Assembly: GCA_041738235.1 (NCBI GenBank)
Contig: JBGSQF010000013.1
Coordinates: 321,899-385,898, forward strand
Direction of reading: 5' to 3'
Source of the DNA: Minisyncoccia bacterium
GTDB lineage: Bacteria; Patescibacteriota; Minisyncoccia; Moranbacterales; GCA-2747515
DNA: 64,000 nucleotides
The notes below the pieces were generated by a model. The model did no database searches. It saw nothing but the letters and a program-made list of their open reading frames with translations, and had not been told where the DNA came from. The position numbers and the translations under genes are program-made. Of the stretch, positions 20,283 through 63,892 are shown one piece after another. How positions within the stretch are numbered: position 1 is the stretch's first letter; each line of letters opens with the position of its first letter.

Positions 20283-20693
20283 TTATTCTTTCCTCCTCTC
20301 TTTTCCCGCAGAGAGCACAATAAACATTCCTTCCAAAAAAATAAACAACAATCCCAATAAGATCAAGACCCACCACACAAGAACCCGAAAACTCTGCAAT
20401 ATCAACATAACTACTACGAGTCCGCCCAACAATATTCCTTCACGAAAACCTGCTGATATCTTTTCTGATGGCCCCTCCGATCCCATAGACCGCATACGAA
20501 GCCAAAGCAACGCCAAAACACAGATCCCCGAAACGAGAAAGAAGACACTTCCATAGAAAAGGAGCTGCCCAACCAAACCCGATATAGTAGGATCTACCCA
20601 AAATAAAACGGTCGAAAAAACGATAAAAGAAAATATAACCTCCAAAACTATCACCAAAAAAAGCAGTCGGAAGCCCATATGCTCAAATTTCAA
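20283..20693 (-). CDS. polytopic small membrane protein (hypothetical; possible T4SS-associated)
   Basis: 136 aa, about four TM helices, immediately downstream of the T4SS ATPase gene. Confidence 0.45.
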   Translation of the reverse strand: MKFEHMGFRLLFLVIVLEVIFSFIVFSTVLFWVDPTISGLVGQLLFYGSVFFLVSGICVLALLWLRMRSMGSEGPSEKISAGFREGILLGGLVVVMLILQSFRVLVWWVLILLGLLFIFLEGMFIVLSAGKERRKE

Positions 20694-20828
20694 AAAAAAC
20701 TATAAGGGTATCATTTAGCACCCCTTTCTCTTCTAATATACTCCTATTTCACCCCCCTGGCAATATGCCGAAAGGACATCCTCAGATGTCCCCGTCCTCA
20801 AAAACGTTCCGTATAAAGCATTTTTCTA

Positions 20829-23348: not shown

Positions 23349-23389
23349 AGATAGAAAAACTCAATAAAGATAAAAAGGGGGAATAACAT

Positions 23390-23824
23390 CTAACCTTCCT
23401 CTTTTAGCAATCCTTTCGAAACCAGTTCCTGATACAGTTTATGCGATAATTGATCGTGTAACATATCCAAAGCATACATATCATCCAGCTCGATCGCCAC
23501 CTTAAAAGCATGTTCCGGACCCTTCTCCATAGCAATATTCACCAACTTTTGGATGCGCGTCTCCTCATCCACAGAAGAGACACTCGACACATCATTACTC
23601 ACCGAAGAGTGGATTTGTCCCGAAGAACTTTGTGCTTGCGATCTTACACGCTCCAAAACCTTTTCATACGAATTCTCCTTCGCCACTTCCGGAGCTTGCT
23701 CTAAAACACTTTCAGGTGAGCGGTCTCGCTCCGCAACACCCGCTGACCCACCTTCTAGATCGACAGGTGCTTCCTGAGTAGCACCCCTCTCTTCTTCGAT
23801 CGGCTCAAGATTATATACAGCCAT
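23390..23824 (-). CDS. acidic hypothetical protein (144 aa)
   Basis: ORF upstream of the T4SS ATPase on the same strand. Highly acidic. Confidence 0.4.
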   Translation of the reverse strand: MAVYNLEPIEEERGATQEAPVDLEGGSAGVAERDRSPESVLEQAPEVAKENSYEKVLERVRSQAQSSSGQIHSSVSNDVSSVSSVDEETRIQKLVNIAMEKGPEHAFKVAIELDDMYALDMLHDQLSHKLYQELVSKGLLKEEG

Positions 23825-23856
23825 ACATAAGAACGTTATCTAATTAACACCCACGA

Positions 23857-25728: not shown

Positions 25729-26808
25729 ATGAAAAAATATCTCATTATCGGCATTACTTTGATCATCGTCGTTGTGGTTGTCTTTTTTGGATTTCAAACC
25801 AGAAAGAATTCCGAACTGCAAACATCGGAAGATGCACCCACCGCAAGTCCACTATCAGTTCAAACGCTCTCATTCGCCAAAGCAAAAACATCTTCCTCAG
25901 AGCGGTCATTCCCCACAACTATAACCATGGAAGGAGAGGCAACGATCATCGCTGAGGTTCCCGGAACGATCATCGCTGATACTGTTTCTCTTGGATCTCG
26001 AGTTGGCGTGGGACAAACTCTCTATAAGATCGATGAGCGTGGAGGATCGATATACTCCGAAACAGGTTTCGAGAGCACGGCTCTTTTACAAGCTAAACTT
26101 GCTCTTAAAAATGCTGAGGAGTCTTACGGTCAAGCCAAACGTGATTACGAAAAAAATGAGAGTCAGGCAATGAAGACTGCACGCGACATCCAAAAAAACC
26201 TCCGCGACATTGCTCTATCCAATTACAACGCTCTACTCGATAAATACACTATAAAAAGCCCTCTCTCCGGTACCGTAACTATGGAATCTGCTGCTCTCGG
26301 GGACAGTGTCACTCCTGGAACAGTCCTAGCAACCATAGGCGCTGGAAAAAAGATCGCTCGTTTTTACGTCCCTGCAAATGATCTTTCTCTTTTCTCTACT
26401 GGACAACCGGTATCTCTCCTCGCCAACAATACTTCGATCCCTGGATCTATTCGCCGAATCTCTCCTATTGCCGACGACGCCAGCAAGCGTTTTCTTATTG
26501 AAGCTGTCAGCACAGATAAAACTTTCCAAACGCTTCCCTCCGGAACGATCGCAACACTTGCCATTACGCTCACACGATCTGCTCAGAAAGACGCCGTACT
26601 CATTCCCCTTTCAGCTCTCCTTCAAGAGCAGAACGGGAGTTTTGTCTTTGTGGTAGAAGATGGCCACGCCAAACGCCAAGAAGTCGATATCAACGCCATA
26701 TACGGAGAAACAGTAGAAATATCTGGGGACTTCAACACAGATACACAATTCATAGTGACCAATGCCAAACGACTTTCCGACGGAACAGCCGTTGCTATTG
26801 AAAAATAA
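25729..26808 (+). CDS. efflux RND transporter periplasmic adaptor (membrane fusion protein, HlyD family)
   Basis: N-terminal TM, then a lipoyl-like/alpha-hairpin/beta-barrel architecture. Followed 19 nt later by the RND permease gene. Confidence 0.75.
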   Translation: MKKYLIIGITLIIVVVVVFFGFQTRKNSELQTSEDAPTASPLSVQTLSFAKAKTSSSERSFPTTITMEGEATIIAEVPGTIIADTVSLGSRVGVGQTLYKIDERGGSIYSETGFESTALLQAKLALKNAEESYGQAKRDYEKNESQAMKTARDIQKNLRDIALSNYNALLDKYTIKSPLSGTVTMESAALGDSVTPGTVLATIGAGKKIARFYVPANDLSLFSTGQPVSLLANNTSIPGSIRRISPIADDASKRFLIEAVSTDKTFQTLPSGTIATLAITLTRSAQKDAVLIPLSALLQEQNGSFVFVVEDGHAKRQEVDINAIYGETVEISGDFNTDTQFIVTNAKRLSDGTAVAIEK

Positions 26809-26827: not shown

Positions 26828-29800
26828 ATGCAAGAAAAAGATCTCACCTCATCATCCAAATACTTTTCTCAACTTTCCTTCGATCCAAAACTCCGAAAAG
26901 GTTTTTTCCATTTCTTTGTATCACGTCCACGTATCGTGATCCTAATGATCATTCTTCTCACGGGCTGGGGATCCTACGCTTATCTGACACTCCCGAGAGA
27001 ATCCAGTCCAGAGGTAAAAATCCCTGTAGCGATCGTATCTGTAGTTTTCCCTGGAGCCTCTCCAAATGATGTAGAGGAACTCGTGACCAAGAAAGTTGAA
27101 ACGGAACTCTCCTCTCTCAAGGGGGTCGACAAAATTCAGTCCTCTTCTTCCAACTCCCTCTCCATAACCACGGTCAATTTTAGTGCGAGTGAAAATCTCG
27201 AAAATGCCATTCGCAGTGTTCGTGATTCCGTCGATAACATCAGATCAAAACTTCCCGACCAAGCAAATGACCCGGTCGTTTCAGAAGTGTCCTTCAGCGA
27301 TCAACCGATCCTTACCCTTTCTCTTACTGGACCCTATGATGGTACGACACTCTATACCTATGCCGAAACGCTCAAAAAAGAACTCGAGAAAGTTTCCGGG
27401 GTCCGCGAAGTGATCCTTTCAGGAGGTGAGCAAACGGAATTTTCCATAAATTACATTCCTGAAAAGATCTCTTTTTACGGTATCTCACCCGCGGTAGCCA
27501 ATCAGGCAGTCACTGCTCGAAATACCTCCATTCCGGGAGGAAATTATGATGGACAATCCTTTTCCTATCCAATACGTTCCGATGCCCGATTCTTCGACGC
27601 CAAGGCACTCGGCGAAACACCCATTCTCACTACTAAAGATGGTGCCGTAGTACTCCTACGGGACATCGCCACCATTTCTGAAAGTCCGATCCCTCGTACG
27701 ACCGCTTCACGATTTTCCTTAAATGGTTCAGTACCCGAAAATGCTGTTACGCTCGATATCAAAAAGAAGACTGGAGGATCGGTACTGGATATTGTAGAAA
27801 ACGCAAAAAAAAGAGCAACAGAACTTACTCCCTCCTTTGGCGAAGGTATCAAGATCGAGACCACCGTGGATTTCTCAGAACAGATCCGTGAAGACTTTGA
27901 TCAACTAGGGAAAGACTTTGCCATTACCGTTCTTTTGGTGGTGGGTACGCTCTTCCTTATAGTGGGTCTCAAAGAAGCCTTCATCGCGGGACTAGCAATA
28001 CCCATGGTGTTCTTCTCGACCTTTGGGGTCATGATGGCCACGGGTACATCACTCAACTTTCTTTCTCTCTTTTCACTCATCCTATCCCTTGGGCTTCTAG
28101 TAGACGACGCTATCGTAGTAGTGTCGGCCACCAAGCAATATCTGCGAAGCGGAAAATTCACTCCTGAAGAGGCGATCCTTTTGGTCCTCCGTGACTTCAA
28201 GATCGTACTCCTTACCACCACACTCGCCACTACGTTCGCCTTCCTTCCTCTTCTCTTGGCAAGTGGAATCATCGGAGAATTCATCAAATCGATCCCTATC
28301 ACCGTTTCTGTGACCCTCATCTCTTCACTGATCATAGCGCTCATTATCAATAACCCCCTTGCGGCCGCATTGGAACGAATACGTTTCACGAGAGCTTTCC
28401 TCTGGATAACGATCGCTATACTTATTCTCTTCTCCTGGACCTCTCTTGCATGGATCCCTGGCATCGCCGGATATTTCGGAGCCTCACTGGCGCTGGCTGG
28501 CATCGTGTCCCTGCTTTTTTTCCGATTCTCCAAAAAAGGAGAGTCTACACTCAACACCAACGAGCGTCTACTTCAAGAGGAACGCCGAAGTGACGAGCTC
28601 ATAAAGAAGCGTCTTCAGACTAGCACTATTGATCATCCTGACTTCTTTCATCGACTCCTCCATGGCATCGTCGGATTTGAAAGAATTATCCCGGTCTACG
28701 GTCGAGCTCTCAACTACGTTCTCGCCTCCAAAAAACATCGGGTTATAACACTGATCGCGACAGTGCTTCTTTTTCTTGCTACGCTTACCCTTCCTGTTCT
28801 CGGCATCGTCAAAACGGAGTTTTTTCCTTCAACGGACAGTAACCTGCTCTTCATCAATGTCACCGCATCATCAGGACTCAAGCTTGACGAAACAGACAGG
28901 CTCACTATGCGTGTTGAAGAAAAACTTCGCAACTACAAAGAGATAGAAAGTTTCTCTACCATTGTAGGACGCGCCGGAATATCCACCAATGGTCCGGGAG
29001 GCTCTGCCGGAGATTCATCAAATCTTGCCGGGATCACCGTTCGGCTGGTAGATAAAAAGGATCGCACGACTCCTTCGTACGACCTTGCCACAAAGATCCG
29101 TAATGACCTCGCAACGATAAACGATGCTGATATCACCGTCGAAGCGGAGCAAGGTGGCCCTCCTGCCGGTGCCGCCTTTGAAGCGCGTATCACCGGAGAT
29201 GACCTCCGCGTTCTCTCCGCGACGGCCGATGATCTTAAAAAGATCCTCGAAACGATCCCCGGTGTCGTAGGGGCCGATATTTCCCTCAAGGAAGCCCCTG
29301 CAGAATACACGTTCACGCTCGATCCCGATCGAGTAGCCCTTTATGGACTCGACGCTACTTCGGTCGGATCCACATTGCGCATGGCCATTTCCGGCGTAGA
29401 GATCTCAACAGTCCTCCGAGACAACAAAGAATATTCCGTTGTCGCACGATTTGATAAACAATATATTTCCACACTTGAATCAGTTCAAAATCTTGAAATA
29501 ATAAATAGAAATGGGACCCCCGTATTTCTCAAGGACGTTGCCAAGATCGAGCTCAAGCCCTCGGTAAATTCCATCGCGCGTACCGATGAACAGCGCGTTG
29601 TCACATTGGCCGCCGGTGTTGAAGGAAAAACCAACCCACAAGATATTCTCAAAGCCTTCCAGGAAAAGGTTGCGAAAGAGTATACCCTCCCCGAAGGGTA
29701 CAGCATCGGCTATGGTGGTCAAAACGAGGAAAATGCCAAGTCGGTGCAATCGATCCTCCAGGCGATGATAATTGCTGCGGCACTTATCATTACCGTACTT

Positions 29801-30235
29801 GTCATCCAATTCAACTCTTTCCGGAAGGCAGTACTTGTGCTTGTCACATTACCTCTTGCGCTCATTGGGGTATTCATCGGGCTCGCGCTATTTCAGATCC
29901 CGCTCTCCTTCCCCGGACTCATCGGGATCCTGGCGCTTTTTGGTATCGTCGTAAAAAATGCCATCATCTTGGTTGATAAAATAAATCTCAATCTTAAAAC
30001 GGGCATTCCTTTTGCCGAGTCAGTGCTTGATGCCGGAAAATCTCGTATCGAAGCGATCGTCATCACCTCGCTCTGTACCATCCTCGGCATCCTCCCCGTC
30101 ACGCTCAGCAATGACACCTGGCGAGCACTAGGCAGTGCCGTCATCTTCGGTCTGGTCTTTTCTTCTTTCCTCACACTCTTTATTATCCCCACACTCTACT
30201 TCGTCATCGCTCGGAAAGAAGAACGGGAAAAATAA
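26828..30235 (+). CDS. efflux RND transporter permease (AcrB/HAE family, 1135 aa)
   Basis: Twelve TM helices with two large periplasmic loops. The conserved TM4/TM10 regions are typical of ACR_tran proteins. Confidence 0.85.
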   Translation: MQEKDLTSSSKYFSQLSFDPKLRKGFFHFFVSRPRIVILMIILLTGWGSYAYLTLPRESSPEVKIPVAIVSVVFPGASPNDVEELVTKKVETELSSLKGVDKIQSSSSNSLSITTVNFSASENLENAIRSVRDSVDNIRSKLPDQANDPVVSEVSFSDQPILTLSLTGPYDGTTLYTYAETLKKELEKVSGVREVILSGGEQTEFSINYIPEKISFYGISPAVANQAVTARNTSIPGGNYDGQSFSYPIRSDARFFDAKALGETPILTTKDGAVVLLRDIATISESPIPRTTASRFSLNGSVPENAVTLDIKKKTGGSVLDIVENAKKRATELTPSFGEGIKIETTVDFSEQIREDFDQLGKDFAITVLLVVGTLFLIVGLKEAFIAGLAIPMVFFSTFGVMMATGTSLNFLSLFSLILSLGLLVDDAIVVVSATKQYLRSGKFTPEEAILLVLRDFKIVLLTTTLATTFAFLPLLLASGIIGEFIKSIPITVSVTLISSLIIALIINNPLAAALERIRFTRAFLWITIAILILFSWTSLAWIPGIAGYFGASLALAGIVSLLFFRFSKKGESTLNTNERLLQEERRSDELIKKRLQTSTIDHPDFFHRLLHGIVGFERIIPVYGRALNYVLASKKHRVITLIATVLLFLATLTLPVLGIVKTEFFPSTDSNLLFINVTASSGLKLDETDRLTMRVEEKLRNYKEIESFSTIVGRAGISTNGPGGSAGDSSNLAGITVRLVDKKDRTTPSYDLATKIRNDLATINDADITVEAEQGGPPAGAAFEARITGDDLRVLSATADDLKKILETIPGVVGADISLKEAPAEYTFTLDPDRVALYGLDATSVGSTLRMAISGVEISTVLRDNKEYSVVARFDKQYISTLESVQNLEIINRNGTPVFLKDVAKIELKPSVNSIARTDEQRVVTLAAGVEGKTNPQDILKAFQEKVAKEYTLPEGYSIGYGGQNEENAKSVQSILQAMIIAAALIITVLVIQFNSFRKAVLVLVTLPLALIGVFIGLALFQIPLSFPGLIGILALFGIVVKNAIILVDKINLNLKTGIPFAESVLDAGKSRIEAIVITSLCTILGILPVTLSNDTWRALGSAVIFGLVFSSFLTLFIIPTLYFVIARKEEREK

Positions 30236-38749: not shown

Positions 38750-39183
38750 GGGGTTGTTTAGATTCGACAGGTTGTTATTTGACATAAGTAAGCAAGCCGG
38801 TTCACGCGCGGTAACACCGAAACCTTCTCCGCGCACTCGATAAGTGCAAACTTCATCACAAAAGCCAAAGACGCTATTGCGCGAGCATTTAGCACCTCTT
38901 TCGCTACCGCCCTGGCTTAATTGCCGAGGCCATCGAATTTCGTGACTCCTTATAACGAATGTTCGGTGTCATATGTATAAGGATAGTCCTCTTCCCCCTT
39001 CTCGAAGGAAGAAGGACGAAACCTCCGAGACCGCCTTAGATGTACTTTGTTTGTTTCTGGGCATCTTCGGTTGGTTCAGGTGAAGGGAAGTAATGCGCCT
39101 TTTATCTGTCAAACAAACTCTGCTTGAAGAAAGCTTTGTCATATCATCTCTGGACATGGGTGCAATTCCCATCAACTCCACCA
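38750..39183 (+). ncRNA. ssrA: tmRNA (ssrA), ~434 nt
   Basis: 5' GGGGTTGTTTAGATTCGACAGG matches the tmRNA consensus GGGGCUGAUUCUGGAUUCGACGGG. 3' GGACATGGGTGCAATTCCCATCAACTCCACCA matches the T-arm plus acceptor and encoded CCA. Acceptor pairs GGGGUUG/CAACUCC. In-frame tag ORF ends ...FATALA-TAA (stop 38918-38920). Lies just downstream of smpB. Confidence 0.8.
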
Positions 39184-53844: not shown

Positions 53845-55809
53845 TTATTGACCGATTTCAACATGGATCTTATTAGGATCTACAGGGAGTTTATTTTGAA
53901 GATGAATGCCCTGCGCCTCCACCTCAAAGCTCTGCACCTGAGAATACTTATTCAGCACATCCTGTAACCCAGACTCATCCTTTCCAGCAACATCAAGACG
54001 TATATCATTTACTGGAAGAACTGGAAAAAAGTATCCGGAAACAAACATTTTTATATCAGCTGTTTTATTGTCAAAGTTAGTGGTGATCTTACCATATTCT
54101 ATGTGAATAGAACGATTATCGGAAATTTTCCTTTCACTCTCGGACAAGTTTCCACTAAGTTTTTCTAAAGCCATATTTTCCATGTCCTGATCAGAGAATG
54201 CTATGTAGCGAACAGCTACCTTTGCCTGAAGCTCAAAAGTATCCGTAACAGTACCGATAGAAGGAACTGGCTTTTCTTCAAGAAACTTCACTTCAATAAG
54301 ATCCTCCAAGGTATTTCCCGATGATACGTCTGTTTTCGCTTTCTCCATGACCTTGGTCCGTATAGAGTCTTCTATATTTTTCTTTGCTTGGATAATATCT
54401 TGATCTGAAACAGACCTGTTCTTTTCATTCTCTGCTCCCCCTCCAGACATTATCTGTTGAGATTCAGCGTAGATCTTTTCGTATTTTGGCCCCCCAGAGA
54501 ATCCAGGTATGGTAAATTTAGTAGCTTCAATATTATATTCAGCCCCAGGAACATCCGCCTGCGCTTCAACTTCCACTTGACCCGGCTGCATGACCCCATC
54601 CTTCTCATACATACCCGGCACAACAATGGATTTCGTAATGCGAAATATCTTCCCATCCGGTGTTTGTAGTCGAGTAGTCGCTACCAACGGCTGATCCTCG
54701 GTACTAAAAGCATTGTAGATCGTCACCATACCGTATGCCTTGCTTCCTCTGCCTGAAGCGATCCCCGTGGCTGATCCTGACATGTTCACATCCTCTTGAT
54801 ATTCAGAAAAGTATGCCTGAACACTACCATCTCCACCATCAACCGCTAAAAGATAACTCACATCCCCAGAGATATCTTCTTTTTTTGGATAAGCTGTTAC
54901 CTTCACCTCTGGATTTCCAATATACATCCAAACAACGAACATCATCCCAATAATAATGGCGAAAGAACCCACCACGATCCATCGAATTCGAAAACCCTTA
55001 GACGCTTTCTTTTCTTGCTGACGGTCGAGTGTTTCTAATGACAGAGCGCGTCGCTCTCTTGAACTCTCGTCACTATGCCGGATTTTCTCTGAAAGACTTT
55101 CTCTCCTATTCTTAGGGAGATCCTGATATGGACCTTTGCTGAGACCCCTATCGTTCCAAGCATGCGAACCCATTGTATTGTCTGCTCCATCATCTGAGAA
55201 AGTTTGTTGCACTCGCTCTCTTGACTCAGAAAAAGATCCGGAATCAGTTTTTACATCTGACCTTCTAGGAGTCTTTGCTCTAAACAAGGACTGAACAGCT
55301 GATCGTGGTGCAGCCCTCAATACTGGTTGTTTCTGTATATTCTCAGCAGATGGATCAATAGGCGCTTCCTGTCGTGCTACAACTTTTACCGACTCAGCAT
55401 ACGGTCCCGGAACCGCATCAAACGATCTGGGCATCCTATCAGAATTCCTCAACACACTTGTTACTTCTGATTGTGGTTGTGGCACTCGCTGATTTCGTAC
55501 CTCCTCTCCCACACCGCTTGCAGGTTGTTCCTCTTTAAGAAAAAGCATTTCCTCCAACGTGTGTCGAACAAAAAATCCTACACGCGTTGCCATCTGAAAC
55601 CCTTGTTCATCCTGAGTGACTATGGAAACATCTTTCCCCAATCGATCTGCTTCCCGCTTCAGGAGGCGCATGGTAATGACACTTGAAAATAAAAGTGCCC
55701 GATGTGGAACAACTAGCACAATAAAACCGGCCTCCGTTGATTTCATCCGGGCTATAAAAGAAAGGATCTCATCGTCAGGATCTACATGAAAAATGACGTA
55801 TCCAGACAT
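53845..55809 (-). CDS. membrane hypothetical protein (654 aa; cytoplasmic N-domain, disordered linker, one TM, large extracytoplasmic beta-rich domain)
   Basis: Single central TM (WIVVGSFAIIIGMMFVVWMY). Sits where ftsZ would be expected after ftsA, but has no tubulin motifs. Confidence 0.5.
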   Translation of the reverse strand: MSGYVIFHVDPDDEILSFIARMKSTEAGFIVLVVPHRALLFSSVITMRLLKREADRLGKDVSIVTQDEQGFQMATRVGFFVRHTLEEMLFLKEEQPASGVGEEVRNQRVPQPQSEVTSVLRNSDRMPRSFDAVPGPYAESVKVVARQEAPIDPSAENIQKQPVLRAAPRSAVQSLFRAKTPRRSDVKTDSGSFSESRERVQQTFSDDGADNTMGSHAWNDRGLSKGPYQDLPKNRRESLSEKIRHSDESSRERRALSLETLDRQQEKKASKGFRIRWIVVGSFAIIIGMMFVVWMYIGNPEVKVTAYPKKEDISGDVSYLLAVDGGDGSVQAYFSEYQEDVNMSGSATGIASGRGSKAYGMVTIYNAFSTEDQPLVATTRLQTPDGKIFRITKSIVVPGMYEKDGVMQPGQVEVEAQADVPGAEYNIEATKFTIPGFSGGPKYEKIYAESQQIMSGGGAENEKNRSVSDQDIIQAKKNIEDSIRTKVMEKAKTDVSSGNTLEDLIEVKFLEEKPVPSIGTVTDTFELQAKVAVRYIAFSDQDMENMALEKLSGNLSESERKISDNRSIHIEYGKITTNFDNKTADIKMFVSGYFFPVLPVNDIRLDVAGKDESGLQDVLNKYSQVQSFEVEAQGIHLQNKLPVDPNKIHVEIGQ

Positions 55810-55846: not shown

Positions 55847-57094
55847 TCATACAACTTTACGTGCCTCCCTTCGCAAGATTCCCGAAAGAAATTTCTCTTC
55901 ATCAAGAAGTTCCACACCCAAACTCACTAAACTCATCGGCGTGACATCTTGTGGTGTTGACAATTCCCCAGTCCGATCCTCAACGCGCTTTACATCCTTT
56001 GGATGAAGAAAATTGACGGTCAATGTTTTTGAGAAAGGTAGTTCTTGTGTCCATTCGGGAAGCAAAAGTGATTCCCGGATCTCCTCCAGCCCTGATCCTC
56101 CTCCACAGAGAAATATTTTGGAAGGAAGAACATCATTTTCAGAAAATTCTGCCAAAGACATCTCCATACCTCCAAGCCACACCAGACTATCTTCCTTTAA
56201 TATACTGCGAACAGGATCCCGGTCCCTTGCAGCAAGAGTTCCCTGAGAATATCCGATCTTCACCCTCTCCGCCTCAGCAAAATCCAAATTAAATGCCTGC
56301 GCCAATCGTTTTGTAAATACTCGCCCCCCAAGCGCAAACATTCTCGTCCCCTCCAATCCGCCATTTCGTACCACGGCAATATCGGTTGTCCCGCCTCCAA
56401 TATCCACAAATATGGCATGAAAATCAAAATTATCATCCTGCATGACTGATTTTGCAACTGCGTAAGGTTCTGCCACGATAGAAAAAATATCAACACCGAT
56501 GTCGTCTGCTATCTTTTCTAAGGCTCCCAAATGCACCAGTGGTGCATACGCATTAAAAACACTGATAGACACATCGGTTCCCTGAAATCCAATTGGACTC
56601 GTAACTTTGTATCCATCGATACGAACATCCACCAAAGCAGAATTGACCAGACGAACCTCGATCGTCTGTTGTCCCGTATCCAGCGCAAGCTGTTTTTTTA
56701 TTCGTTCATATGCATTTTGCTGTACCTGTCGAATGATCTCTTTCACCTCTGAGACATCAATACGAATACTCGATCTGATTCGCTTATAATGTACGGTCGT
56801 AGTTGTGCCCTTTACTAATTCACCAGCAATACCCAGAATAGATTTTCCCACATTCTTTACGTGAGCGCTTTTTTTCGCTTTCTCAATAGCTACCCTCGAT
56901 GTGTCGATCACTCCTTGGATGTGAGAAATAGCACCGCTACGCATATTCCCAGGCTTTTGTGCCTCTTTCCCGACCCCAAGAATAATGCCTTTATTCGCCT
57001 TTTTGTCCACCTCAAAAACCAAAGCCTTAACAACTTCCGTTCCAATATCCAATGCTAAATATTTTTCAGACGATCCTCCTCCCCAAAAAGACAT
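55847..57094 (-). CDS. actin-like ATPase of the FtsA/PilM family
   Basis: LALDIGTEVVKALVFEV phosphate-1 motif, SGAISHIQGVIDTSRVAIEKA, DIGGGTTDIAV phosphate-2 and a ...CGGGS adenosine motif. 415 aa favours FtsA over PilM. Confidence 0.6.
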   Translation of the reverse strand: MSFWGGGSSEKYLALDIGTEVVKALVFEVDKKANKGIILGVGKEAQKPGNMRSGAISHIQGVIDTSRVAIEKAKKSAHVKNVGKSILGIAGELVKGTTTTVHYKRIRSSIRIDVSEVKEIIRQVQQNAYERIKKQLALDTGQQTIEVRLVNSALVDVRIDGYKVTSPIGFQGTDVSISVFNAYAPLVHLGALEKIADDIGVDIFSIVAEPYAVAKSVMQDDNFDFHAIFVDIGGGTTDIAVVRNGGLEGTRMFALGGRVFTKRLAQAFNLDFAEAERVKIGYSQGTLAARDRDPVRSILKEDSLVWLGGMEMSLAEFSENDVLPSKIFLCGGGSGLEEIRESLLLPEWTQELPFSKTLTVNFLHPKDVKRVEDRTGELSTPQDVTPMSLVSLGVELLDEEKFLSGILRREARKVV

Positions 57095-57174: not shown

Positions 57175-58185
57175 TTATACCACAATTACCTCGATCTGCT
57201 CTGCAACAACAGACATCTCACTCAATGTCAATAATCCATCTCGCGCTCCATAATACTGAACAACGCTCCCACCGTTGGCAATTCCCCATCGCAAACATTC
57301 TGCCATATCCTTTCCTCGCAGATAGGCCGCAATGAATGCTCCCGTAAAAGCGTCTCCTGCGCCAGTGCTATCCACAATATGCTCGACCTTCCTTGATCTT
57401 GCAAAATAGCAAGTTTCTCGATTGTATACCCATGCCCCACGATCACCATCAGTAATAACTGCATACTTTGCCCCAAACGACGTTATTACCTCCGCAAGAT
57501 ATCTTTCTTCACTCAGGCGATCTCTTTCAACATTTTCGTTCTCCCTCAAAATAACTTCTATAGCCTCATCCTTATTTACAAAGACTATCTCACTTATACC
57601 CATAAGGCTCACTACACAATGTACATCATCTACAATATTCCTCTGCCCAGGATTGTAATACACTCGAGCCAAATGGTCCTTCACAACACCTTCTATAACA
57701 GTGATATTATCTTGCCATTCCCCATACATCCCACTGACAAATATCTCTTCCAGATTCTCGATATCTTCCTTTTTTACTTTGAGTCGCTCATTAGCGTCAC
57801 GATTATACACAACGGTTCTGTCAGCACTTTTTGGCTCAACGATAATACATGCCACATCCGTTCCTACACCCTTTTCTCGGGTCAGATACCGAGTATCAAC
57901 CCCCTCATTAGAAAGGTCCGCAATGATCTCTTCTCCATAGGTATCCTCTCCCACAACAGAATAACTCAACGGTTGCACCTCAAGTCTTGCTAAAGCCAAA
58001 GACACATTCAAAGAACACCCTCCTGGGGCCTCATATCGGTTTTCCGTACGATATTTAGCACCCAATTCTAAGAGTATATTTTTTTTAGATGTTAGGTCCT
58101 CCGGGGTATTATAGACCCGCACATCCTCAAGAGGAAAAAATATATCCCGAGACGCAGAACCGATGCACACGATAGATTTACTCAT
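57175..58185 (-). CDS. PfkB-family carbohydrate/nucleoside kinase (ribokinase-like)
   Basis: N-terminal IVCIGSASRDIFF and C-terminal anion-hole GAGDAFTGAFIAAY. Confidence 0.75.
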   Translation of the reverse strand: MSKSIVCIGSASRDIFFPLEDVRVYNTPEDLTSKKNILLELGAKYRTENRYEAPGGCSLNVSLALARLEVQPLSYSVVGEDTYGEEIIADLSNEGVDTRYLTREKGVGTDVACIIVEPKSADRTVVYNRDANERLKVKKEDIENLEEIFVSGMYGEWQDNITVIEGVVKDHLARVYYNPGQRNIVDDVHCVVSLMGISEIVFVNKDEAIEVILRENENVERDRLSEERYLAEVITSFGAKYAVITDGDRGAWVYNRETCYFARSRKVEHIVDSTGAGDAFTGAFIAAYLRGKDMAECLRWGIANGGSVVQYYGARDGLLTLSEMSVVAEQIEVIVV

Positions 58186-58261
58186 ATATAATTTATTTAA
58201 GCTCTTCAAACCAACATCTACTTAGTTGAGAACATAAGCCCTTCCACGAGAAACAAAAAGA

Positions 58262-58681
58262 TCAAAATGTAGTATTTGACCCCCTCAACCAGGTATCGAT
58301 CGCCGTAATAATGATCAATCCTGAAAGCATTATAATAACACCGACGATCGAATAGATCATATTGCGTTTTGCTGTTTCAATAATGTCATCATTCCCAGCA
58401 GAAACTAAATATTGTATCCCGGAGATCACGAAAGCGATAATAGCAACGGTACCAGCAATTAGCAAAAGCCACTTTAAAACATTGAGCGATACCTCTAGCG
58501 GAGTCTTTTCCGACAATCCAAGTTTTGTCCCTTTTGGGACACATGTTCCTTTATACAGCGTAAGGTTAGAATCTTGCTTTGTACAATCGGACTCAGTGAG
58601 CGCATATACATTTGACTGTAAGAGAAAGCAAGAAAGAAATAAAAAACTTATCAAAAAAAGTTTTTTCATATCAAAAATCAT
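58262..58681 (-). CDS. secreted protein with conserved C-terminal two-helix membrane hairpin module (pilin-like paralog 1; VirB2/TrbC-like topology)
   Basis: Signal peptide, ~45-aa ectodomain, then the shared module LKWLLLIAGTVAIIAFVISGIQYLVSAGNDDIIETAKRNMIYSIVGVIIMLSGLIIITAIDTWLRG. Confidence 0.55.
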   Translation of the reverse strand: MIFDMKKLFLISFLFLSCFLLQSNVYALTESDCTKQDSNLTLYKGTCVPKGTKLGLSEKTPLEVSLNVLKWLLLIAGTVAIIAFVISGIQYLVSAGNDDIIETAKRNMIYSIVGVIIMLSGLIIITAIDTWLRGSNTTF

Positions 58682-58740
58682 AATCTATTTTTACTTTCTT
58701 ATTTTTACAAGATCTTATTTCCATTTTACCACTTTTCACC

Positions 58741-58776
58741 CAAAAACAAAAGCGACCCTTGGCATAGGATCGCTCT
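58741..58776 (-). terminator. rho-independent terminator after paralog 2
   Basis: Minus-strand AGCGATCC-TATGCCAAG-GGTCGCT followed by TTTTGTTTTTGG. Confidence 0.4.
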
Positions 58777-58796
58777 TGCGAAAATACAGAGAGTAT

Positions 58797-59222
58797 TTAG
58801 AACTGAGAGGTGGTTCCGCCAAGCCAGGTACTGACCGCATTGATGATGATGAGTCCCATAAGCGCTACGATCACACCAACGATCGCGTAGATCATCGTTG
58901 TCTTTGCTTTCTCTATTTTGTCATCATCTCCAGCCGCAGTGAGGTACAGGATACCAGAGATCACAAAAGCGATAACCGCCAAAAATCCTACTAAATAGAG
59001 CAACCAGCGCATTAATGTAAGCACAACCACTGAGATCCGAGCAGAAGACAATTCAGATGCCGACCCCGAATCAGTAAGTCCAGTTGACCACCCGCCGTCT
59101 GCCGGACCAGTAATTGCCGCCTCCACTCCTCCTGCCAAAGAAAACAAAACGACTCCGAAAACAAATACCGAAACAATAAACAAAGCACCTCGCATTTTCT
59201 CCACCAAAAACATTTGCCTCAT
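58797..59222 (-). CDS. pilin-like paralog 2 (same C-terminal module, Ser/Gly-rich ectodomain)
   Basis: Module MRWLLYLVGFLAVIAFVISGILYLTAAGDDDKIEKAKTTMIYAIVGVIVALMGLIIINAVSTWLGG. About 90% aa identity to paralog 3 over the module, with a shared 33-nt identical core. Confidence 0.55.
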   Translation of the reverse strand: MRQMFLVEKMRGALFIVSVFVFGVVLFSLAGGVEAAITGPADGGWSTGLTDSGSASELSSARISVVVLTLMRWLLYLVGFLAVIAFVISGILYLTAAGDDDKIEKAKTTMIYAIVGVIVALMGLIIINAVSTWLGGTTSQF

Positions 59223-59260
59223 ACTTTTTTTATTAATTTTTAAACATTATGTAATAAACA

Positions 59261-59647
59261 TTAAAATTGAGCAGTTTGTCCGCCAAGCCAAGTATTTATG
59301 GCATTCACAATAATGAGTCCCATGAGCCCAACAATTACCCCAATGATTGCATAGATCATCGTTGTCTTTGCTTTCTCTATCTTATCGTCATCACCTGCTG
59401 CAGTAAGGTAAAATATAGCAGAAATCACAAAAGCAATGATCGCAAGAAATCCCATGATATAAAGAAGCCAGCGCAGAAGGCTCAGGACAACCCCAGATAT
59501 GGACGTCGAGCTCAAACCAAGTCCGGTCAAGTTAGAATTACTGGTTGGATTTGTCCACTGTGCGCTCACCACCACTGGAGCAAGAAGAAGAGATGCTCCA
59601 ATCCCATACCACATCCGCCGAATGTTTCGAATTATGTGCATAGGCAT
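59261..59647 (-). CDS. pilin-like paralog 3
   Basis: Signal peptide, ~35-aa ectodomain, then the conserved module ...AAGDDDKIEKAKTTMIYAIIGVIVGLMGLIIVNAINTWLGG. Confidence 0.55.
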   Translation of the reverse strand: MPMHIIRNIRRMWYGIGASLLLAPVVVSAQWTNPTSNSNLTGLGLSSTSISGVVLSLLRWLLYIMGFLAIIAFVISAIFYLTAAGDDDKIEKAKTTMIYAIIGVIVGLMGLIIVNAINTWLGGQTAQF

Positions 59648-59755
59648 TTCTAATTACTTTTTATTTTTATTATTCTCCACACACTCCTTTTGTAAACAGG
59701 AAAGGATGCATAGATCTCAGTCACTTGCTTTTATGTTAACACAAAATCTCGCGCA

Positions 59756-60034
59756 TTACAATAACATATCAATTGTGGATAACATCACAAGCGCTCCAAG
59801 CGCCACGATCACTCCGACCACCGAATAGATCATCCACTTCTTTGCCCGATCAAGAACATCTTGGTTTCCACTTGCTAAAAGATATAAAAGTCCCAAGCCA
59901 ACGAACGCGATAACTGCAACCACTCCAAAAACTTGAAGTAGCCATTGTAACACATTAGTTAAAACGGTCGATATAGGAGTGGCATCAGTGATCACTCCAG
60001 CGTACGCGGTAGGTATGGACAGATATTGGAACAT
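59756..60034 (-). CDS. pilin-like paralog 4 (minimal form, 92 aa)
   Basis: Short leader directly followed by the module LQWLLQVFGVVAVIAFVGLGLLYLLASGNQDVLDRAKKWMIYSVVGVIVALGALVM. Confidence 0.5.
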   Translation of the reverse strand: MFQYLSIPTAYAGVITDATPISTVLTNVLQWLLQVFGVVAVIAFVGLGLLYLLASGNQDVLDRAKKWMIYSVVGVIVALGALVMLSTIDMLL

Positions 60035-60066
60035 CTTTTTTTCAGAGTTGGATCAGTTATCTATTA

Positions 60067-61464
60067 CTACTGTACATATATAAGAACCGTTGATTTCTTT
60101 GTTGTATCAGCTTTGTATATCGCTGTTATAGTCGTACTCCCTGCAGAAACAGCTCGCACGACCCCATTATCATCAACCGTTGCCACGGCAGTGTTACTTG
60201 ACGTCCAGGTAGCAAGATCATTTGAGATCTGAGTTCCCCCCTGTGGTGGCCCAAGGGCGGGACACTGGATCGCCTGTGTGCTCGTATAGAGGTTTAGGAC
60301 CGTTTCACTCCCCACACTTGCGGTCTTCATCCCGGGACATGCGATAAGATATGCGATATCCGGAGGAAGAACGAGTATTTGAACAGATTCCTTTCTTCCG
60401 TTTATTGCTGCCGTGATCGTAACATTTTTCCCACCCGTAGTAGTGGCTGGTGCGGTCACCTTTCCCTTATCAACGGTAGCTAGGGTAGTATCAGATGATG
60501 TCCAGGTAGCCGTACTGGTAACATCGGTAGCACTTCCGGTATTATTGCAATCCGAGATCGTACTTGTGGCAGAATCCCATGCCTTAAGCTGAACCGAATC
60601 TCCTGCTTTAAGTGATTGGCTCGCGTACAACCCACATATGGCCATATCCCCACTTCCACTACCCCCACCACCTCCGCTACCACCTCCTCCACCGTCACTA
60701 CCACCATCTCCCGATTCAGAAGTTGTGTTACACGACACCTGCCACCAATTGCCCGATACATAACTCTTGTTGATCGGGAGTACCAGGATAACGGCATTGA
60801 TGATCACCCAAGAAAGTAATACGATCGTAAAACCAACAAGTGTATTTTTAATGAATGTTTTAGCACTTTCCATCATGGAGGAGTTCCCTGCTGAAGCAAT
60901 GTACATGAGACCCGCCGCCACCAACATCACAAATGCCACTGCTGTCAAAACCCTCATACCCCAATTGATGATATTTTGAATGAGTTGGAAAAGATGACAG
61001 AGCGTACAAGTAGACTGTCCTGTTCCACCACACGGAACCAATCCACCAGATGAAGATCCCGTATTTGTTTGAGAAGTCGACTCCGTCCCACCACAACAAA
61101 TGTCTGTCGTTCTTTTGGTGCAATCGGTACTCGTCCCAGAAGTCTGCCCCCCAGTACAAGCAGAAGAAGCAACACAAGAACCGTCCTTGTAGGTCTTTCC
61201 CCCAGATGTATAACTACAGGACTGTGCCTGAATGTCAATTTGCAAGATCGCATCACAACAAATATCCGTCTGAGAAGTACATTGGTTACTAGCCCCCTTA
61301 AATTGAGAAGTACAGGATGTTGCAAGCTTGCACGTCCCTGCGTACGTATACGATCCACTCGCATAGGTGCATGTTTCACCCGCTGCAAACACTTCTTGAG
61401 GCAAGCCCACTATCACCGCCAACGAGAATAACCCAAGAAAAAATGTGAGGATCTTTGTTTTCAT
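60067..61464 (-). CDS. 465-aa chimeric surface protein: signal peptide, three Cys-rich ~40-aa repeats, embedded pilin-like two-helix module, poly-Gly/Ser linker, two Ig-like (Big_2-type) domains
   Basis: Repeats C.Y.SG..TY..G.C......C......C....TDICC. Module INWGMRVLTAVAFVMLVAAGLMYIASAGNSSMMESAKTFIKNTLVGFTIVLLSWVIINAV. Linker GDGGSDGGGGGSGGGGGSGSGD. Two segments with ATVD..G.V.A...G..TITA. Confidence 0.6.
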   Translation of the reverse strand: MKTKILTFFLGLFSLAVIVGLPQEVFAAGETCTYASGSYTYAGTCKLATSCTSQFKGASNQCTSQTDICCDAILQIDIQAQSCSYTSGGKTYKDGSCVASSACTGGQTSGTSTDCTKRTTDICCGGTESTSQTNTGSSSGGLVPCGGTGQSTCTLCHLFQLIQNIINWGMRVLTAVAFVMLVAAGLMYIASAGNSSMMESAKTFIKNTLVGFTIVLLSWVIINAVILVLPINKSYVSGNWWQVSCNTTSESGDGGSDGGGGGSGGGGGSGSGDMAICGLYASQSLKAGDSVQLKAWDSATSTISDCNNTGSATDVTSTATWTSSDTTLATVDKGKVTAPATTTGGKNVTITAAINGRKESVQILVLPPDIAYLIACPGMKTASVGSETVLNLYTSTQAIQCPALGPPQGGTQISNDLATWTSSNTAVATVDDNGVVRAVSAGSTTITAIYKADTTKKSTVLIYVQ

Positions 61465-61509: not shown

Positions 61510-62799
61510 TTACCCATTCTCTTTTCGAAAATTCCTCCATCCCGCATACACTGCCCGCTCTCCCAATTCCTCTTCTATACGAAGGAGTTGATTATACTTG
61601 GAAAGTCGCTCTCCGCGACAAGGTGCACCGGATTTGATCTGTCCCGCACCAACCGCTACAGAAAAATCCGCGATAAAATCATCCACCGTTTCTCCGGATC
61701 TGTGACTCACATACACCGTATACCCGCCTGCGTGAGAAACGCGCACCGCTTCCCTTGCTTCTGTGACGGTTCCAATCTGATTTAGCTTGATGAGTGATGC
61801 ATTCGCGACACCACCAGTAATAGCATCTTGAATTATTTGTGGATTTGTACAAAACAGATCATCCCCAACCAACTGGATCTTATCTCCCAATCTTTTGGTG
61901 ATCTCCTGCCATCCCTCCCAATCATTTTGCCCCAGGGCATCCTCAATAGAAACAATCGGATAATCCGTAATCCACCGCTCCCACAGGTCGATCATTTGCG
62001 CTGTACTGAGTCGTCGTTTGTCCGACTTAAAGAATTCATATTCGCCATCATGCCACAGTTCGCTCACTGCCGGATCTAATCCTATTGCAATATCCTCACG
62101 CGCTCGATATCCTGCTTTCTCAATACTTGCTACCATCATTTCGATCGCTTCTTCATTAGATGCCACATTTGGAGCAAATCCCCCCTCATCGCCCACACCC
62201 GTAGAAAGTCCTTTATCCTTCAGCATTCCCTTTAATATATGATACACTTCTGATCCCATCTGGAAAGCTTGGGAAAAATTCTTGGCTCCTACTGGCACAA
62301 ATTTGAATTCTTGAAAATCGATAGTATTGTCTGCGTGCGCTCCTCCGTTGATGCTATTAAAGCAGGGGGTGGGAATAATGACAGCCTCATCTCCTCCCAA
62401 AGATCGATAGAGAGGTAACCTCTTTTGGTTCGAGTTAGCTCTCGCGCATGCCATCGACACTCCCAATATGGCATTAGCCCCAAGATTACCCTTATTATTC
62501 GTACCATCCAATTCGATCATTGTTTGATCGATCCCCTCTTGATCCTCCACATCCAACCCGAGAAGCACCGGGGCAATAACCTCGTTTACATTACGCACTG
62601 CCTTGGTTACTCCCTTTCCTCCATATCGCTTTTCATCCCCATCACGAAGTTCTACAGCTTCACGATCCCCCGTGGAAGCACCAGAAGGGACTCCCGCACG
62701 ACCTATCGAGCCATCTTCAAGCATCATATCTACTTCCACCGTTGGGTTTCCCCGAGAATCCAGAATCTCCCGAGCATATATCTTTGTGATCTTTGCCAT
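61510..62799 (-). CDS. eno: enolase (phosphopyruvate hydratase)
   Basis: MAKITKIYAREILDSRGNPTVEVD..., near-consensus enolase throughout. Confidence 0.95.
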   Translation of the reverse strand: MAKITKIYAREILDSRGNPTVEVDMMLEDGSIGRAGVPSGASTGDREAVELRDGDEKRYGGKGVTKAVRNVNEVIAPVLLGLDVEDQEGIDQTMIELDGTNNKGNLGANAILGVSMACARANSNQKRLPLYRSLGGDEAVIIPTPCFNSINGGAHADNTIDFQEFKFVPVGAKNFSQAFQMGSEVYHILKGMLKDKGLSTGVGDEGGFAPNVASNEEAIEMMVASIEKAGYRAREDIAIGLDPAVSELWHDGEYEFFKSDKRRLSTAQMIDLWERWITDYPIVSIEDALGQNDWEGWQEITKRLGDKIQLVGDDLFCTNPQIIQDAITGGVANASLIKLNQIGTVTEAREAVRVSHAGGYTVYVSHRSGETVDDFIADFSVAVGAGQIKSGAPCRGERLSKYNQLLRIEEELGERAVYAGWRNFRKENG

Positions 62800-62815: not shown

Positions 62816-63892
62816 TTATTTATGATCTATACCCTGACTAACCTTCTTTGACTTGCTTAATACTTCTATCCCCGGCATCCTCTCCCCGCCCAAAAAATCG
62901 AGCATCGCTCCTCCACCAGTTGAAACAAAAGAGATCTTCTCCATCAATCCCATTTCTTCCAATGCCTGCACCGATTCCCCACCACCAACGATCGAGTATG
63001 CATCCAATCTAGCAATGGCTTGTGCTATTTCATGTGTTCCGCGAGCATAACGAGTGTCCTCAAACATACCCATAGGACCATTCCATATGATCGTCTCTGC
63101 CAATTTCATCTTTTCAATAAAGAGATCTATTGTTTTTGGACCGATGTCCAAACGATCGTCCACGAAGTCCACTGGAAGAAATACTCTATCAGAAAATTGT
63201 ATGCCCTCATCTATCGCTTCATTCGCTATCTTTCCACCCACCAGAATTATATCATACTCTTTTTCCAACCTCCTCAGAAGTGGAAGCTTGGTTTCGATCT
63301 TCGCCCCACCAATGACCGCCACTGCAGGACGTTTTGGCTGAGTTAGAATCTGAGAAAGATATTCCACTTCCTGTTGCAAGTGAAGTCCTGAAAAGCTTGG
63401 CAAAAATTTCGTTATTCCCGTAACAGATGCTTGATCCCTATGACATACACTAAAAGCGTCATTGATGAACACATCAAATGAAGATGCGATCGCTTGGGCA
63501 AAGTCGTTATCGTTCTCTTCTTCCCCCGGATAGAATCGTACGTTCTCAAGTAAAAGAACCGACCTTGTGGGTACCTCATCAAGAGCTTTTTTGATCTCCT
63601 TCTGAGAGATGTCCGACACAAAGATAGCCTGATACCCCAAAACACGCACGATATCGTCCAAAATATTTTTCAAAGAAAGACTTGGATCCGGCTTTCCGTC
63701 AGGACGACCGAGATGCGTGATAAGCGTCACGCTATGAGCCCCTTTTGACAAAACGTATTCGATGCTCTTTTTTGAACTCTCCACTTTATATCGCTCCGTA
63801 ATATCGCCGTTTTTAAGCGTTACATTAAAATCTACTCGCATAAGCACCTTCTTTCCCACATATTCAACATCTTGCATTTTCTTCAGCTCCAT
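62816..63892 (-). CDS. pgk: phosphoglycerate kinase
   Basis: VLMRVDFNV N-terminal motif, HLGRP, C-terminal GGGESVQALEEMGL...STGGGAMLDFLGG. Confidence 0.85.
   Translation of the reverse strand: MELKKMQDVEYVGKKVLMRVDFNVTLKNGDITERYKVESSKKSIEYVLSKGAHSVTLITHLGRPDGKPDPSLSLKNILDDIVRVLGYQAIFVSDISQKEIKKALDEVPTRSVLLLENVRFYPGEEENDNDFAQAIASSFDVFINDAFSVCHRDQASVTGITKFLPSFSGLHLQQEVEYLSQILTQPKRPAVAVIGGAKIETKLPLLRRLEKEYDIILVGGKIANEAIDEGIQFSDRVFLPVDFVDDRLDIGPKTIDLFIEKMKLAETIIWNGPMGMFEDTRYARGTHEIAQAIARLDAYSIVGGGESVQALEEMGLMEKISFVSTGGGAMLDFLGGERMPGIEVLSKSKKVSQGIDHK

Follow-up and report, generated by a model that had tools for sequence, protein, structure and literature searches.

Tandem arrays of type IV secretion system (T4SS) pilin genes are a described feature of Patescibacteria. 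The survey by Quiñonero-Coronel et al. 2025 (PMC12102498) covers 3,035 Patescibacteria genomes searched with PF18895 (T4SS_pilin) and PF04956 (TrbC/VirB2), and reports VirB2-like pilins in 1,948 VirB4-containing assemblies, near virB4 in 1,135 of the 1,948. It also describes 441 tandem pilin arrays of 2 to 11 genes in 383 assemblies, with low identity within arrays, an array being at least two PF18895 or PF04956 genes (i-E <0.001, >50% coverage) in tandem or with a one-gene gap. A pilin series inside the T4SS cluster is essential in Southlakia epibionticum (PMC10633639), and a 2025 review regards a Gram-positive-type Patescibacterial pilus as an "intriguing possibility" (PMC12857230). Here, we describe a locus of five adjacent minus-strand genes, p1 to p5 (58262-61464), in a 64,000-nucleotide stretch (the window, to which all coordinates refer) of contig JBGSQF010000013.1 from a Minisyncoccia bacterium (GCA_041738235.1), whose closest relatives belong to Candidatus Moraniibacteriota (Parcubacteria group). 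The five adjacent same-strand genes fall within the survey's definition of an array, as do 78 of 79 related loci, and the locus is a further example of this already described kind. The original prediction, made from the DNA alone, had stated that the genes match no recognized system, which is contradicted by the curated family PF18895 and by the Patescibacterial arrays published in the three sources above.

All five genes are PF18895 family members with a helical-hairpin architecture. The open reading frame (ORF) list gives five neighboring genes with intergenic gaps of 32 to 115 nt. When the 64-kb window, translated in six frames, was searched with a hidden Markov model (HMM) of the five modules, these five copies and no others stood out (E values of 2e-39 to 6e-35, with the next match at E >1), indicating that the paralogy is real and restricted to this locus; the claim of five consecutive minus-strand paralogs with a common ~70-aa two-helix module is thus confirmed. 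A Pfam search with the module, proposed together with that claim, returns PF18895 for all five proteins at 32 to 40.5 bits (gathering threshold, 26.6), covering about 62 to 70 of the 71 profile positions in each. PF04956 (gathering threshold, 27.9) is passed by p4 with 33.5 bits; p1 reaches 18.4 bits, and p2, p3, and p5 have no reported match. Each copy contains two hydrophobic segments (Kyte-Doolittle 19-mer peaks of 2.4 to 2.7) with a short charged loop in between, and the conserved columns of the module follow the pattern W…G…AG…K…G. In AlphaFold2 (AF2) models, p3 folds into a signal peptide helix and a hairpin (H50-82/H87-122) with a predicted local distance difference test (pLDDT) score of 81, and p5 has its hairpin at H154-190/H195-228. 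The predicted VirB2/TrbC-like hairpin topology therefore agrees with the family assignments, hydropathy, and models alike. Amino acid identity over the module is 80% between p2 and p3, otherwise 42 to 57% among p1 to p4, and 19 to 28% between p5 and the others. A search with p3 yields 118 homologues, every one bearing PF18895; those with names come from Candidatus Moraniibacteriota or other Patescibacteria metagenome-assembled genomes (MAGs), and some are annotated as "pilin" or "MMCAP2_0565 family pilin-like conjugal transfer protein" (e.g., P0036, Moraniibacteriota).

Signal peptides were called by a heuristic combining hydropathy and the -3/-1 rule. By this measure p1, p2, p3, and p5 have signal peptide-like N termini, with a K/R n-region, a hydrophobic core, and an A-x-A-type site, and the predicted cleavage sites are VYA↓L, VEA↓A, VSA↓Q, and VFA↓A, respectively. 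p1 (58262-58681, minus strand, 139 aa) has a predicted signal peptide at aa 1 to 27, a mature N-tail of ~35 aa with two Cys, and the module at aa 63 to 128 (58298-58495; PF18895 38 bits, with the TrbC score below the cutoff). p2 (58797-59222, minus strand, 141 aa) combines a predicted signal peptide at aa 1 to 35, a mature N-tail of ~30 aa, and the module at aa 66 to 129 (58836-59027; 38.9 bits). The corresponding parts of p3 (59261-59647, minus strand, 128 aa) are aa 1 to 29, a mature N-tail of ~20 aa, and aa 47 to 117 (59297-59509; 39.8 bits). p4 (59756-60034, minus strand, 92 aa) is a short pilin with only a 12-aa leader of uncharged residues, MFQYLSIPTAYA, and no canonical signal peptide; its module (aa 19 to 88, 59771-59980) scores 40.5 bits for PF18895 and, as noted, is also above the PF04956 cutoff, so that of the five p4 is closest to VirB2/TrbC. 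Hence, the view that every member starts with a signal peptide stands for four proteins and fails for p4, and the view that every member ends in the module fails for p5, in which the Pfam module (aa 158 to 225) sits in the middle of the protein.

How does this array compare to known systems? It resembles the arrays of S. epibionticum ML1 and Nanosynbacter lyticus TM7x (the "Sec secreted array") in having the same Pfam family, tandem same-strand paralogs, Sec-type leaders, divergent sequence on a conserved hairpin, and a chromosomal location in a reduced genome. It differs from them in lying amid glycolysis and cell division genes, with a VirD4-like ATPase 35 kb away as the only T4SS-type gene in the 64-kb window. 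Compared to the surveyed arrays, the full-length identity of 59% between p2 and p3 slightly exceeds the maximum of 54% given for within-array pairs, and p5 bears Ig-like cargo, extended or cargo-bearing pilins being unmentioned in the passages of the survey that were searched (PMC12102498). The TrbC/VirB2/TraA proteins of the T-pilus and F-pilus (PF04956) are likewise small, with a leader, two hydrophobic helices, and a short charged loop; p4 passes their model, and an N-out/C-out topology is presumed here by likeness to theirs. In contrast to them, the TrbC cutoff is reached by p4 alone, sequence and fold searches gave no match to solved pilins, and the organism is thought to be monoderm, with a T4SS type akin to the Gram-positive MPF-FATA systems, in which pilins are normally missing (PMC12102498). 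The pilin-like proteins of Mycoplasma integrative conjugative elements (NCBIfam NF045849; Mbov_0395/MMCAP2_0565) are also two-helix proteins of ~80 aa and belong to the T4SS of a monoderm. Each of the five proteins covers the NF045849 model almost from end to end, but the best score (p3, 32.5 bits, E of 4.9e-8) and the others (17 to 28 bits) are below the cutoff of 40, so that p1 to p5 are not members, and the Mycoplasma proteins are encoded as single copies in a mobile element rather than in chromosomal arrays. Bartonella and Anaplasma have tandem arrays of divergent VirB2 genes as well, read as surface variation or host-surface adaptation in the survey (PMC12102498), but these belong to Gram-negative VirB/D4 systems of intracellular animal pathogens, which are phylogenetically unrelated carriers, and have no cargo fusions.

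Sequence comparison with a close relative reveals which parts of the array change. A 7.4-kb contig of a sister species (L003) has the same gene order (PGK, enolase, p5, p4, p3, p2, and p1) at 75 to 80% DNA identity, and the orthologous proteins are 80% (PGK), 90% (enolase), 77% (p4), 77% (p3), 78% (p2), and 83% (p1) identical. The hairpins of p2 and p3 are nearly invariant between the two species, and changes cluster in the mature N-tail and the last ~10 residues, the pattern expected for exposed termini on a structurally constrained hairpin. This fits the originally proposed design of variable exposed parts on a conserved module.

The sister species also dates the p2/p3 pair. The two modules are 73 to 75% identical at the nucleotide level and share at most 29 consecutive identical nt, not ~78% with a 33-nt core as first stated, and the 30-mer quoted at that time has one exact match and one with a single mismatch. 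At the protein level the identity is 59% over the full length and 80% over the module, and among the 84 codons of the module, 34 differ synonymously and 17 nonsynonymously. The sister species has both paralogs as well, and identity within the genome (73%) is not above that between paralogs across species (68 to 73%), indicating that the duplication is old and that no concerted evolution has taken place. The synonymous divergence and the cross-species comparison thus speak against the recent duplication or gene conversion that had been suggested, and conversion across the whole array left no sign. The 29-nt run encodes the strictly conserved loop IEKAKTTMIY and is not common to the sister copies at the nucleotide level; it may be a micro-conversion tract or due to chance, and a rough estimate is near the chance expectation.

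The first gene of the array, p5 (60067-61464, minus strand, 465 aa; PF18895 at 32 bits), is a composite protein. Its signal peptide-like segment (aa 1 to 27, 61384-61464; MKTKILTFFLGLFSLAVIVGLPQEVFA↓AG) is modeled as a helix at residues 2 to 19. The Cys-rich N-terminal ectodomain (aa 28 to 137, 61054-61383) is built from a ~54-aa unit that occurs twice, each time with six Cys, in the pattern C.Y.SG..TY..G.C…CT…CT…DICC (direct repeat D6, 162-nt spacing); this ~110-aa domain has no Pfam match and is modeled with a pLDDT of 30 to 45. The hairpin with its flanking Cys motif follows (aa 138 to 250, 60715-61053), arranged as GLVPCG…CTLCHL, a first transmembrane helix (TM1), loop, TM2, and WWQVSC, with the PF18895 core at 60790-60993. 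A Gly-rich linker joins it to two tandem Ig-like Big_2 domains (aa 273 to 366 and 372 to 465, 60070-60648; Pfam Big_2 at 43.7 bits, and aBig_2), which are modeled as beta-sandwiches with pLDDT values of 80 to 98 and correspond to an internal DNA repeat (D4, 297-nt spacing). Foldseek gives Big_2 segments of LigA, S-layer Ig domains, and intimin as best matches of these C-terminal domains. In total, ~110 aa on the N-terminal side and ~235 aa on the C-terminal side lie outside the hairpin. A segment of p1 (aa 28 to 48, 58580-58600; SDCTKQDSNLTLYKGTC) resembles the first half of the p5 Cys repeat, C.Y.SG..TYK.G.C. This likeness suggests a small disulfide-bonded motif that may be common to p1 and the p5 N-domain within the array.

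BLASTP aligns aa 1 to 248 of p5 with its orthologue from the sister species, P0123 (627 aa), at 92% identity and nothing beyond this point, and Pfam assigns Calx-beta domains to P0123 where p5 has Big_2. At the DNA level, the blastn alignment ends at 60665 and resumes at 60016, and the segment without homology in between (60017-60664) shows by its position where the C-terminal cargo of p5 was exchanged.

The p5 hairpin represents a distinct, large subtype. Alignments with the first-gene proteins of related arrays show GLVPCG…C-T-L-C-H-L before helix 1 and W..F.C after helix 2, with C145, C153, and C156 invariant and C245 nearly so; we infer that extracellular disulfides tie the hairpin ends together. 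A phmmer search with aa 138 to 250 against 1.84 billion representative sequences gives 9,346 matches at E ≤1e-3 and 1,348 at E ≤1e-10. Pfam searches of long subtype members find wall hydrolases, namely, SLT in 7 of 30 locus-derived and 7 of 93 library proteins as well as SLT_3 and NlpC/P60, and adhesin-type beta-sandwich domains, including Big_2, Calx-beta, CARDB, and TSP_3; the majority of the extensions lack any recognizable Pfam domain. An array-opening gene encoding a signal peptide, a PF18895 hairpin, and a C-terminal SLT domain is found at L014:8541-9626, L039:2141-3211, L008:8343-9398, L052:8558-9625, L050:7687-8802, and L080:6172-8661; one SLT-fusion first gene also bears an N-terminal subtilase. 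Such a fusion puts a VirB1-like enzyme onto a VirB2-like anchor and is the commonest recognizable first gene in the relatives, and it may explain why VirB1 is reported missing in most pilin-bearing Patescibacteria genomes. p5 shares with VirB1-type transglycosylases this connection through its closest subtype relatives, which carry SLT on the same hairpin at array position one. Its likeness to T4SS-associated adhesins (PrgB-type in Gram-positives and VirB5-type at pilus tips) lies in the LigA/intimin-like tandem Ig domains of p5, which are typical of adhesins. p5 differs from both in that it has no SLT domain and is unlike PrgB or VirB5, and anchoring by a VirB2-like hairpin is foreign to those families. 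An incomplete literature search found no description of pilin-SLT or pilin-Ig fusions in the candidate phyla radiation (CPR), which is weak evidence of novelty. Another group of proteins (P0199, P0223, P0289, P0310, and P0327) contains 3 to 8 tandem PF18895 modules per chain, such as 6 in 552 aa and 8 in 820 aa. They are putative pilin arrays in covalently fused form, predicted to be polytopic in the membrane, and gene-calling read-through is possible.

These observations lead to a speculative proposal, which we consider possible but rather doubtful: the VPCG…CxxC…W..F.C hairpin subtype could be a general device of Patescibacteria by which the T4SS or pilus is fitted with interchangeable extracellular cargo, be it lytic transglycosylases, other wall hydrolases, or adhesin domains of the Ig, Calx-beta, or CARDB type, with p5-type proteins as the "missing" T4SS adhesins and cargo swaps as adaptation to host surfaces. 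If so, the presence of Big_2 in one species and Calx-beta in the other, behind N-terminal halves that are 92% identical, would be an adaptation to different host surfaces.

To place the locus among its relatives, a genome collection was scanned with the pilin alignment, which gave 79 related loci, and PF18895-like ORFs were counted with a local HMM. The loci carry titles of Moraniibacteriota (the majority), of Parcubacteria/Paceibacteria MAGs, or of third-party annotation (TPA) entries of "uncultured Bdellovibrionales." Same-strand arrays of 2 to 9 copies, with a mode of 5, are present in 78 of the 79 loci, and one locus has a single copy. Many relatives repeat the order of a large protein, a ~90-aa pilin, and then pilins of ~120 to 150 aa. 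Among the 397 module-bearing ORFs, 112 are at least 190 aa long. Most of these (83/112) have an N-terminal extension, without any Pfam domain, and the module at the extreme C terminus, and they are usually last in the array; about 22 of the 112 have the module near the N terminus and a C-terminal extension of 200 to 400 aa, typically standing first in the array with a ~90-aa pilin next. The order in the window (465, 92, 128, 141, and 139 aa) fits this second pattern of a C-terminally extended first gene. The TPA MAGs labeled "uncultured Bdellovibrionales" or "Pseudobdellovibrionaceae" (L004 to L008, L012, L013, L019, L021 to L024, and others) have Moraniibacteriota-type arrays that are 42 to 50% identical to p3, and these labels are probably wrong.

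Neighbors within 10 kb of the arrays were clustered and cluster representatives searched with Pfam. They are mostly housekeeping genes, such as those for NusA, IF-2, BipA, trigger factor, ClpP, iPGM, pyrophosphatases, UvrD, and RNase J, and no VirB4 was seen within 10 kb of the arrays in the 79 loci. In 13 to 15 of them, genes for a LysM-CHAP hydrolase, a TrbL/VirB6-like protein (~712 aa), and a 560-aa protein without a family directly precede the array, which in this T4SS-linked variant opens with a ~90-aa pilin. This order occurs at L073:3432-12634 and in L027, L033, L042, L043, L046, L062, L064, L067, L069, L071, L079, and L082. When HMMs of the LysM-CHAP, TrbL/VirB6-like, and associated neighbor families were run against the window, nothing convincing was found.

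The one T4SS-type gene found in the window besides p1-p5 is at 20829-23348 (minus strand), 35 kb from the array, and encodes an 839-aa ATPase with an N-terminal transmembrane segment. It is of the VirD4/TraD coupling protein type: Pfam DUF87 is above its cutoff and TrwB_AAD_bind and TraG-D_C are just below theirs, PDB matches include TrwB (E of 2.6e-5) and DotL (E of 1.3e-3), and the NCBIfam models for TraD and the CD1115 VirD4-like family match below their cutoffs. Against VirB4/CagE/TrbE, it lacks PF03135 and has only a match to VirB4_plasma (E of 0.007, 14 bits), so that of the earlier label "VirB4/VirD4-like" the VirD4 half holds and the VirB4 half does not. The ATPase lies outside the array and is a possible, putative T4SS partner. 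According to the survey, Patescibacteria average about two VirD4-like genes that are rarely near virB4, and the one in S. epibionticum is nonessential (PMC12102498); the presence of this gene is therefore weak evidence of linkage. It is located next to gyrB (18254-20263) and flanked by three ORFs without families (20283-20693, 23390-23824, and 23857-25560), all on the minus strand. The region 20283-25560 may be a conserved CPR-specific module.

What might the array produce? The explanation that we favor, with moderate confidence, is that it encodes five VirB2-like T4SS pilin paralogs, the small ones assembled by a VirB4-type T4SS and p5 acting as an accessory. By analogy with characterized pilins, p1, p2, p3, and p5 would be exported by the Sec pathway with cleavage of their signal peptides, and p4 would insert with a short N-tail. 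Both helices would reside in the cytoplasmic membrane, as in VirB2 and TraA, with the charged loop (…AGDDDKIEKAK…, including a family-invariant Lys) in the cytoplasm and the termini outside. The small subunits p1 to p4 could then be extracted by a VirB4-type T4SS whose genes would lie outside the window, elsewhere in the genome, and may assemble into a pilus- or stalk-like surface structure for epibiotic host contact, with the variable tails exposed. p5 would use the same hairpin, in its Cys-motif subtype, to hold a swappable C-terminal cargo. Since p5 combines this hairpin with swappable cargo, here Big_2, and a Cys-rich N-domain, its most likely role is that of an accessory adhesin anchored by the hairpin, or of a minor or tip component, rather than that of a bulk filament subunit.

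Several points weigh against this explanation. The window, 64 kb of a contig of at least 408 kb, contains no homologues of VirB4, VirB3/PrgI, TrsD, or VirB6, the array sits between enolase/PGK and the pfkB kinase/FtsA genes, and the adjacency to a T4SS gene cluster by which TrbC/VirB2 genes are recognized is not found in the window. The p5 termini would be hard to pack in a VirB2-type helical filament, and the multimodule chains of other genomes fit a membrane-embedded role better than a filament. Foldseek with the p3 model finds no PDB match at E ≤0.001 that would support structural equivalence with VirB2/TraA, a result that is uninformative rather than negative because a two-helix hairpin is too simple to discriminate pilins, and when the pilin alignment was used as a profile against PDB sequences, only chance-level matches and no solved pilin came up. 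In the literature, polymerization has no experimental demonstration for any PF18895 member, and a 2024 perspective calls the role of the T4SS "completely unknown."

Some of these points would be accommodated if the hairpin were only a VirB2-derived membrane anchor or translocon element that displays tails and cargo without any extended pilus. This is the strongest competitor, although we regard it as rather unlikely. It agrees with the general lack of pili in the MPF-FATA relatives of the Patescibacterial VirB4 (PMC12102498 and PMC10633639), with the many proteins in which the module is fused to an enzyme or an adhesin-like domain, with the 3 to 8 tandem modules of single polypeptides, and with the fact that a pilus of PF18895 proteins is unobserved in the literature. 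On the other hand, p1 to p4 (92 to 141 aa) carry no cargo and have a size and topology like those of bona fide pilins, the TrbC/VirB2 cutoff is exceeded by p4, and small paralogs that vary in their exposed tails fit a surface polymer, as the survey argues for Bartonella and Anaplasma VirB2 (PMC12102498).

The original prediction went further and raised a new surface appendage or adhesin system, read here as categorically new and unrelated to T4SSs. Such a system would be in keeping with the modular cargo, with the housekeeping neighbors of most related loci, and with the window, in which no T4SS gene adjoins the array. It is nevertheless improbable, since the module belongs to a curated T4SS pilin family linked to TrbC/VirB2, LysM-CHAP and TrbL/VirB6-like genes directly precede the array in the 13 to 15 loci mentioned above, the pilin is near virB4 in 1,135 of 1,948 surveyed assemblies (PMC12102498), and the S. 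epibionticum pilins are within a T4SS cluster (PMC10633639). Even less credible is that these are small two-transmembrane lysis or toxin-type proteins (holins or bacteriocin/immunity proteins) resembling pilins. What speaks for it is the generic build of two transmembrane helices and a charged loop and weak subthreshold matches, such as Cyt_bd_oxida_II and a T6SS effector family; against it stand the housekeeping neighbors (PGK, enolase, pfkB kinase, FtsA, NusG, and ribosomal proteins) in place of a holin context, the synteny kept in the sister species at ~80% DNA identity, the predicted cleavable signal peptides, and the specific PF18895/TrbC scores. Finally, type IV (T4P/T2SS) pilins or pseudopilins, for which one could cite that Patescibacteria encode T4P and that an actin-like ATPase gene is nearby, are refuted, as had been foreseen, by the absence of the class-defining prepilin peptidase motif G↓(F/M)xxxE from all five proteins, which moreover have two transmembrane helices instead of one N-terminal helix, and the actin-like gene is much closer to FtsA than to PilM, with a kinase gene lying between it and the array.

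The surroundings of the array in the window are those of central metabolism and cell division. Upstream lie the genes for enolase (61510-62799) and, beyond it, PGK (62816-63892). The gene directly downstream encodes a pfkB-family sugar kinase (57175-58209), and the actin-like gene (55847-57094) follows; the latter, originally called FtsA/PilM-like and immediately downstream, is FtsA-like (E of 2.5e-31, compared to a far weaker 1.5e-9 for PilM), and the intervening kinase gene removes the adjacency. NusG and ribosomal protein genes are further neighbors, and no phage or lysis context is seen. Between the FtsA-like gene and NusG is a 654-aa ORF (53845-55809) with no Pfam or NCBIfam match. Within the array, a consensus scan finds a terminator-like hairpin of 14 pairs with a T-run between p2 and p1 (58746-58779, minus strand), tentatively a possible end of a transcription unit, the total of terminator-like sites in that scan being not clearly above shuffled controls. 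A promoter-like site, a consensus match only, lies upstream of p3 (59669-59696). The two sites hint that p3-p2 may form a separate, highly expressed unit. Invertible or phase-variable elements around the array were rejected, since a repeat scan found no convincing inverted repeats there and the only repeats are the paralogous modules and the internal domain repeats.

Elsewhere in the window, an HlyD-type membrane fusion protein (25729-26808) and a full-length AcrB-type resistance-nodulation-division (RND) transporter (26828-30235, E of 2e-182) resemble a tripartite pump, in a lineage generally considered monoderm. A 1,258-aa protein (6660-10436) with Kelch/mutarotase-like beta-propeller repeats and a weak match to filamentous hemagglutinin-type repeats is probably a large surface protein. 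A transfer-messenger RNA (tmRNA) gene (38750-39183; tag ANFITKAKDAIARAFSTSFATALA) and a tRNA-Glu(CTC) gene (2405-2480) are also present.

The p1-p5 locus alone opens no new question; the cargo-swapping p5 subtype is the sole part that goes beyond the published surveys, and it is a modestly new lead only. Its interest lies in the setting: in the one genetically tractable Patescibacterium, the T4SS and the pilin series are essential to epibiotic growth, and each described array provides comparative material on a constrained hairpin versus host-facing termini and cargo. To this, the present analysis adds a recurrent array order in Moraniibacteriota/Paceibacteria-type genomes with a first gene that is often a hairpin-SLT fusion, and a cargo that is replaceable by adhesin-like domains between close species, making such proteins candidates for host recognition.

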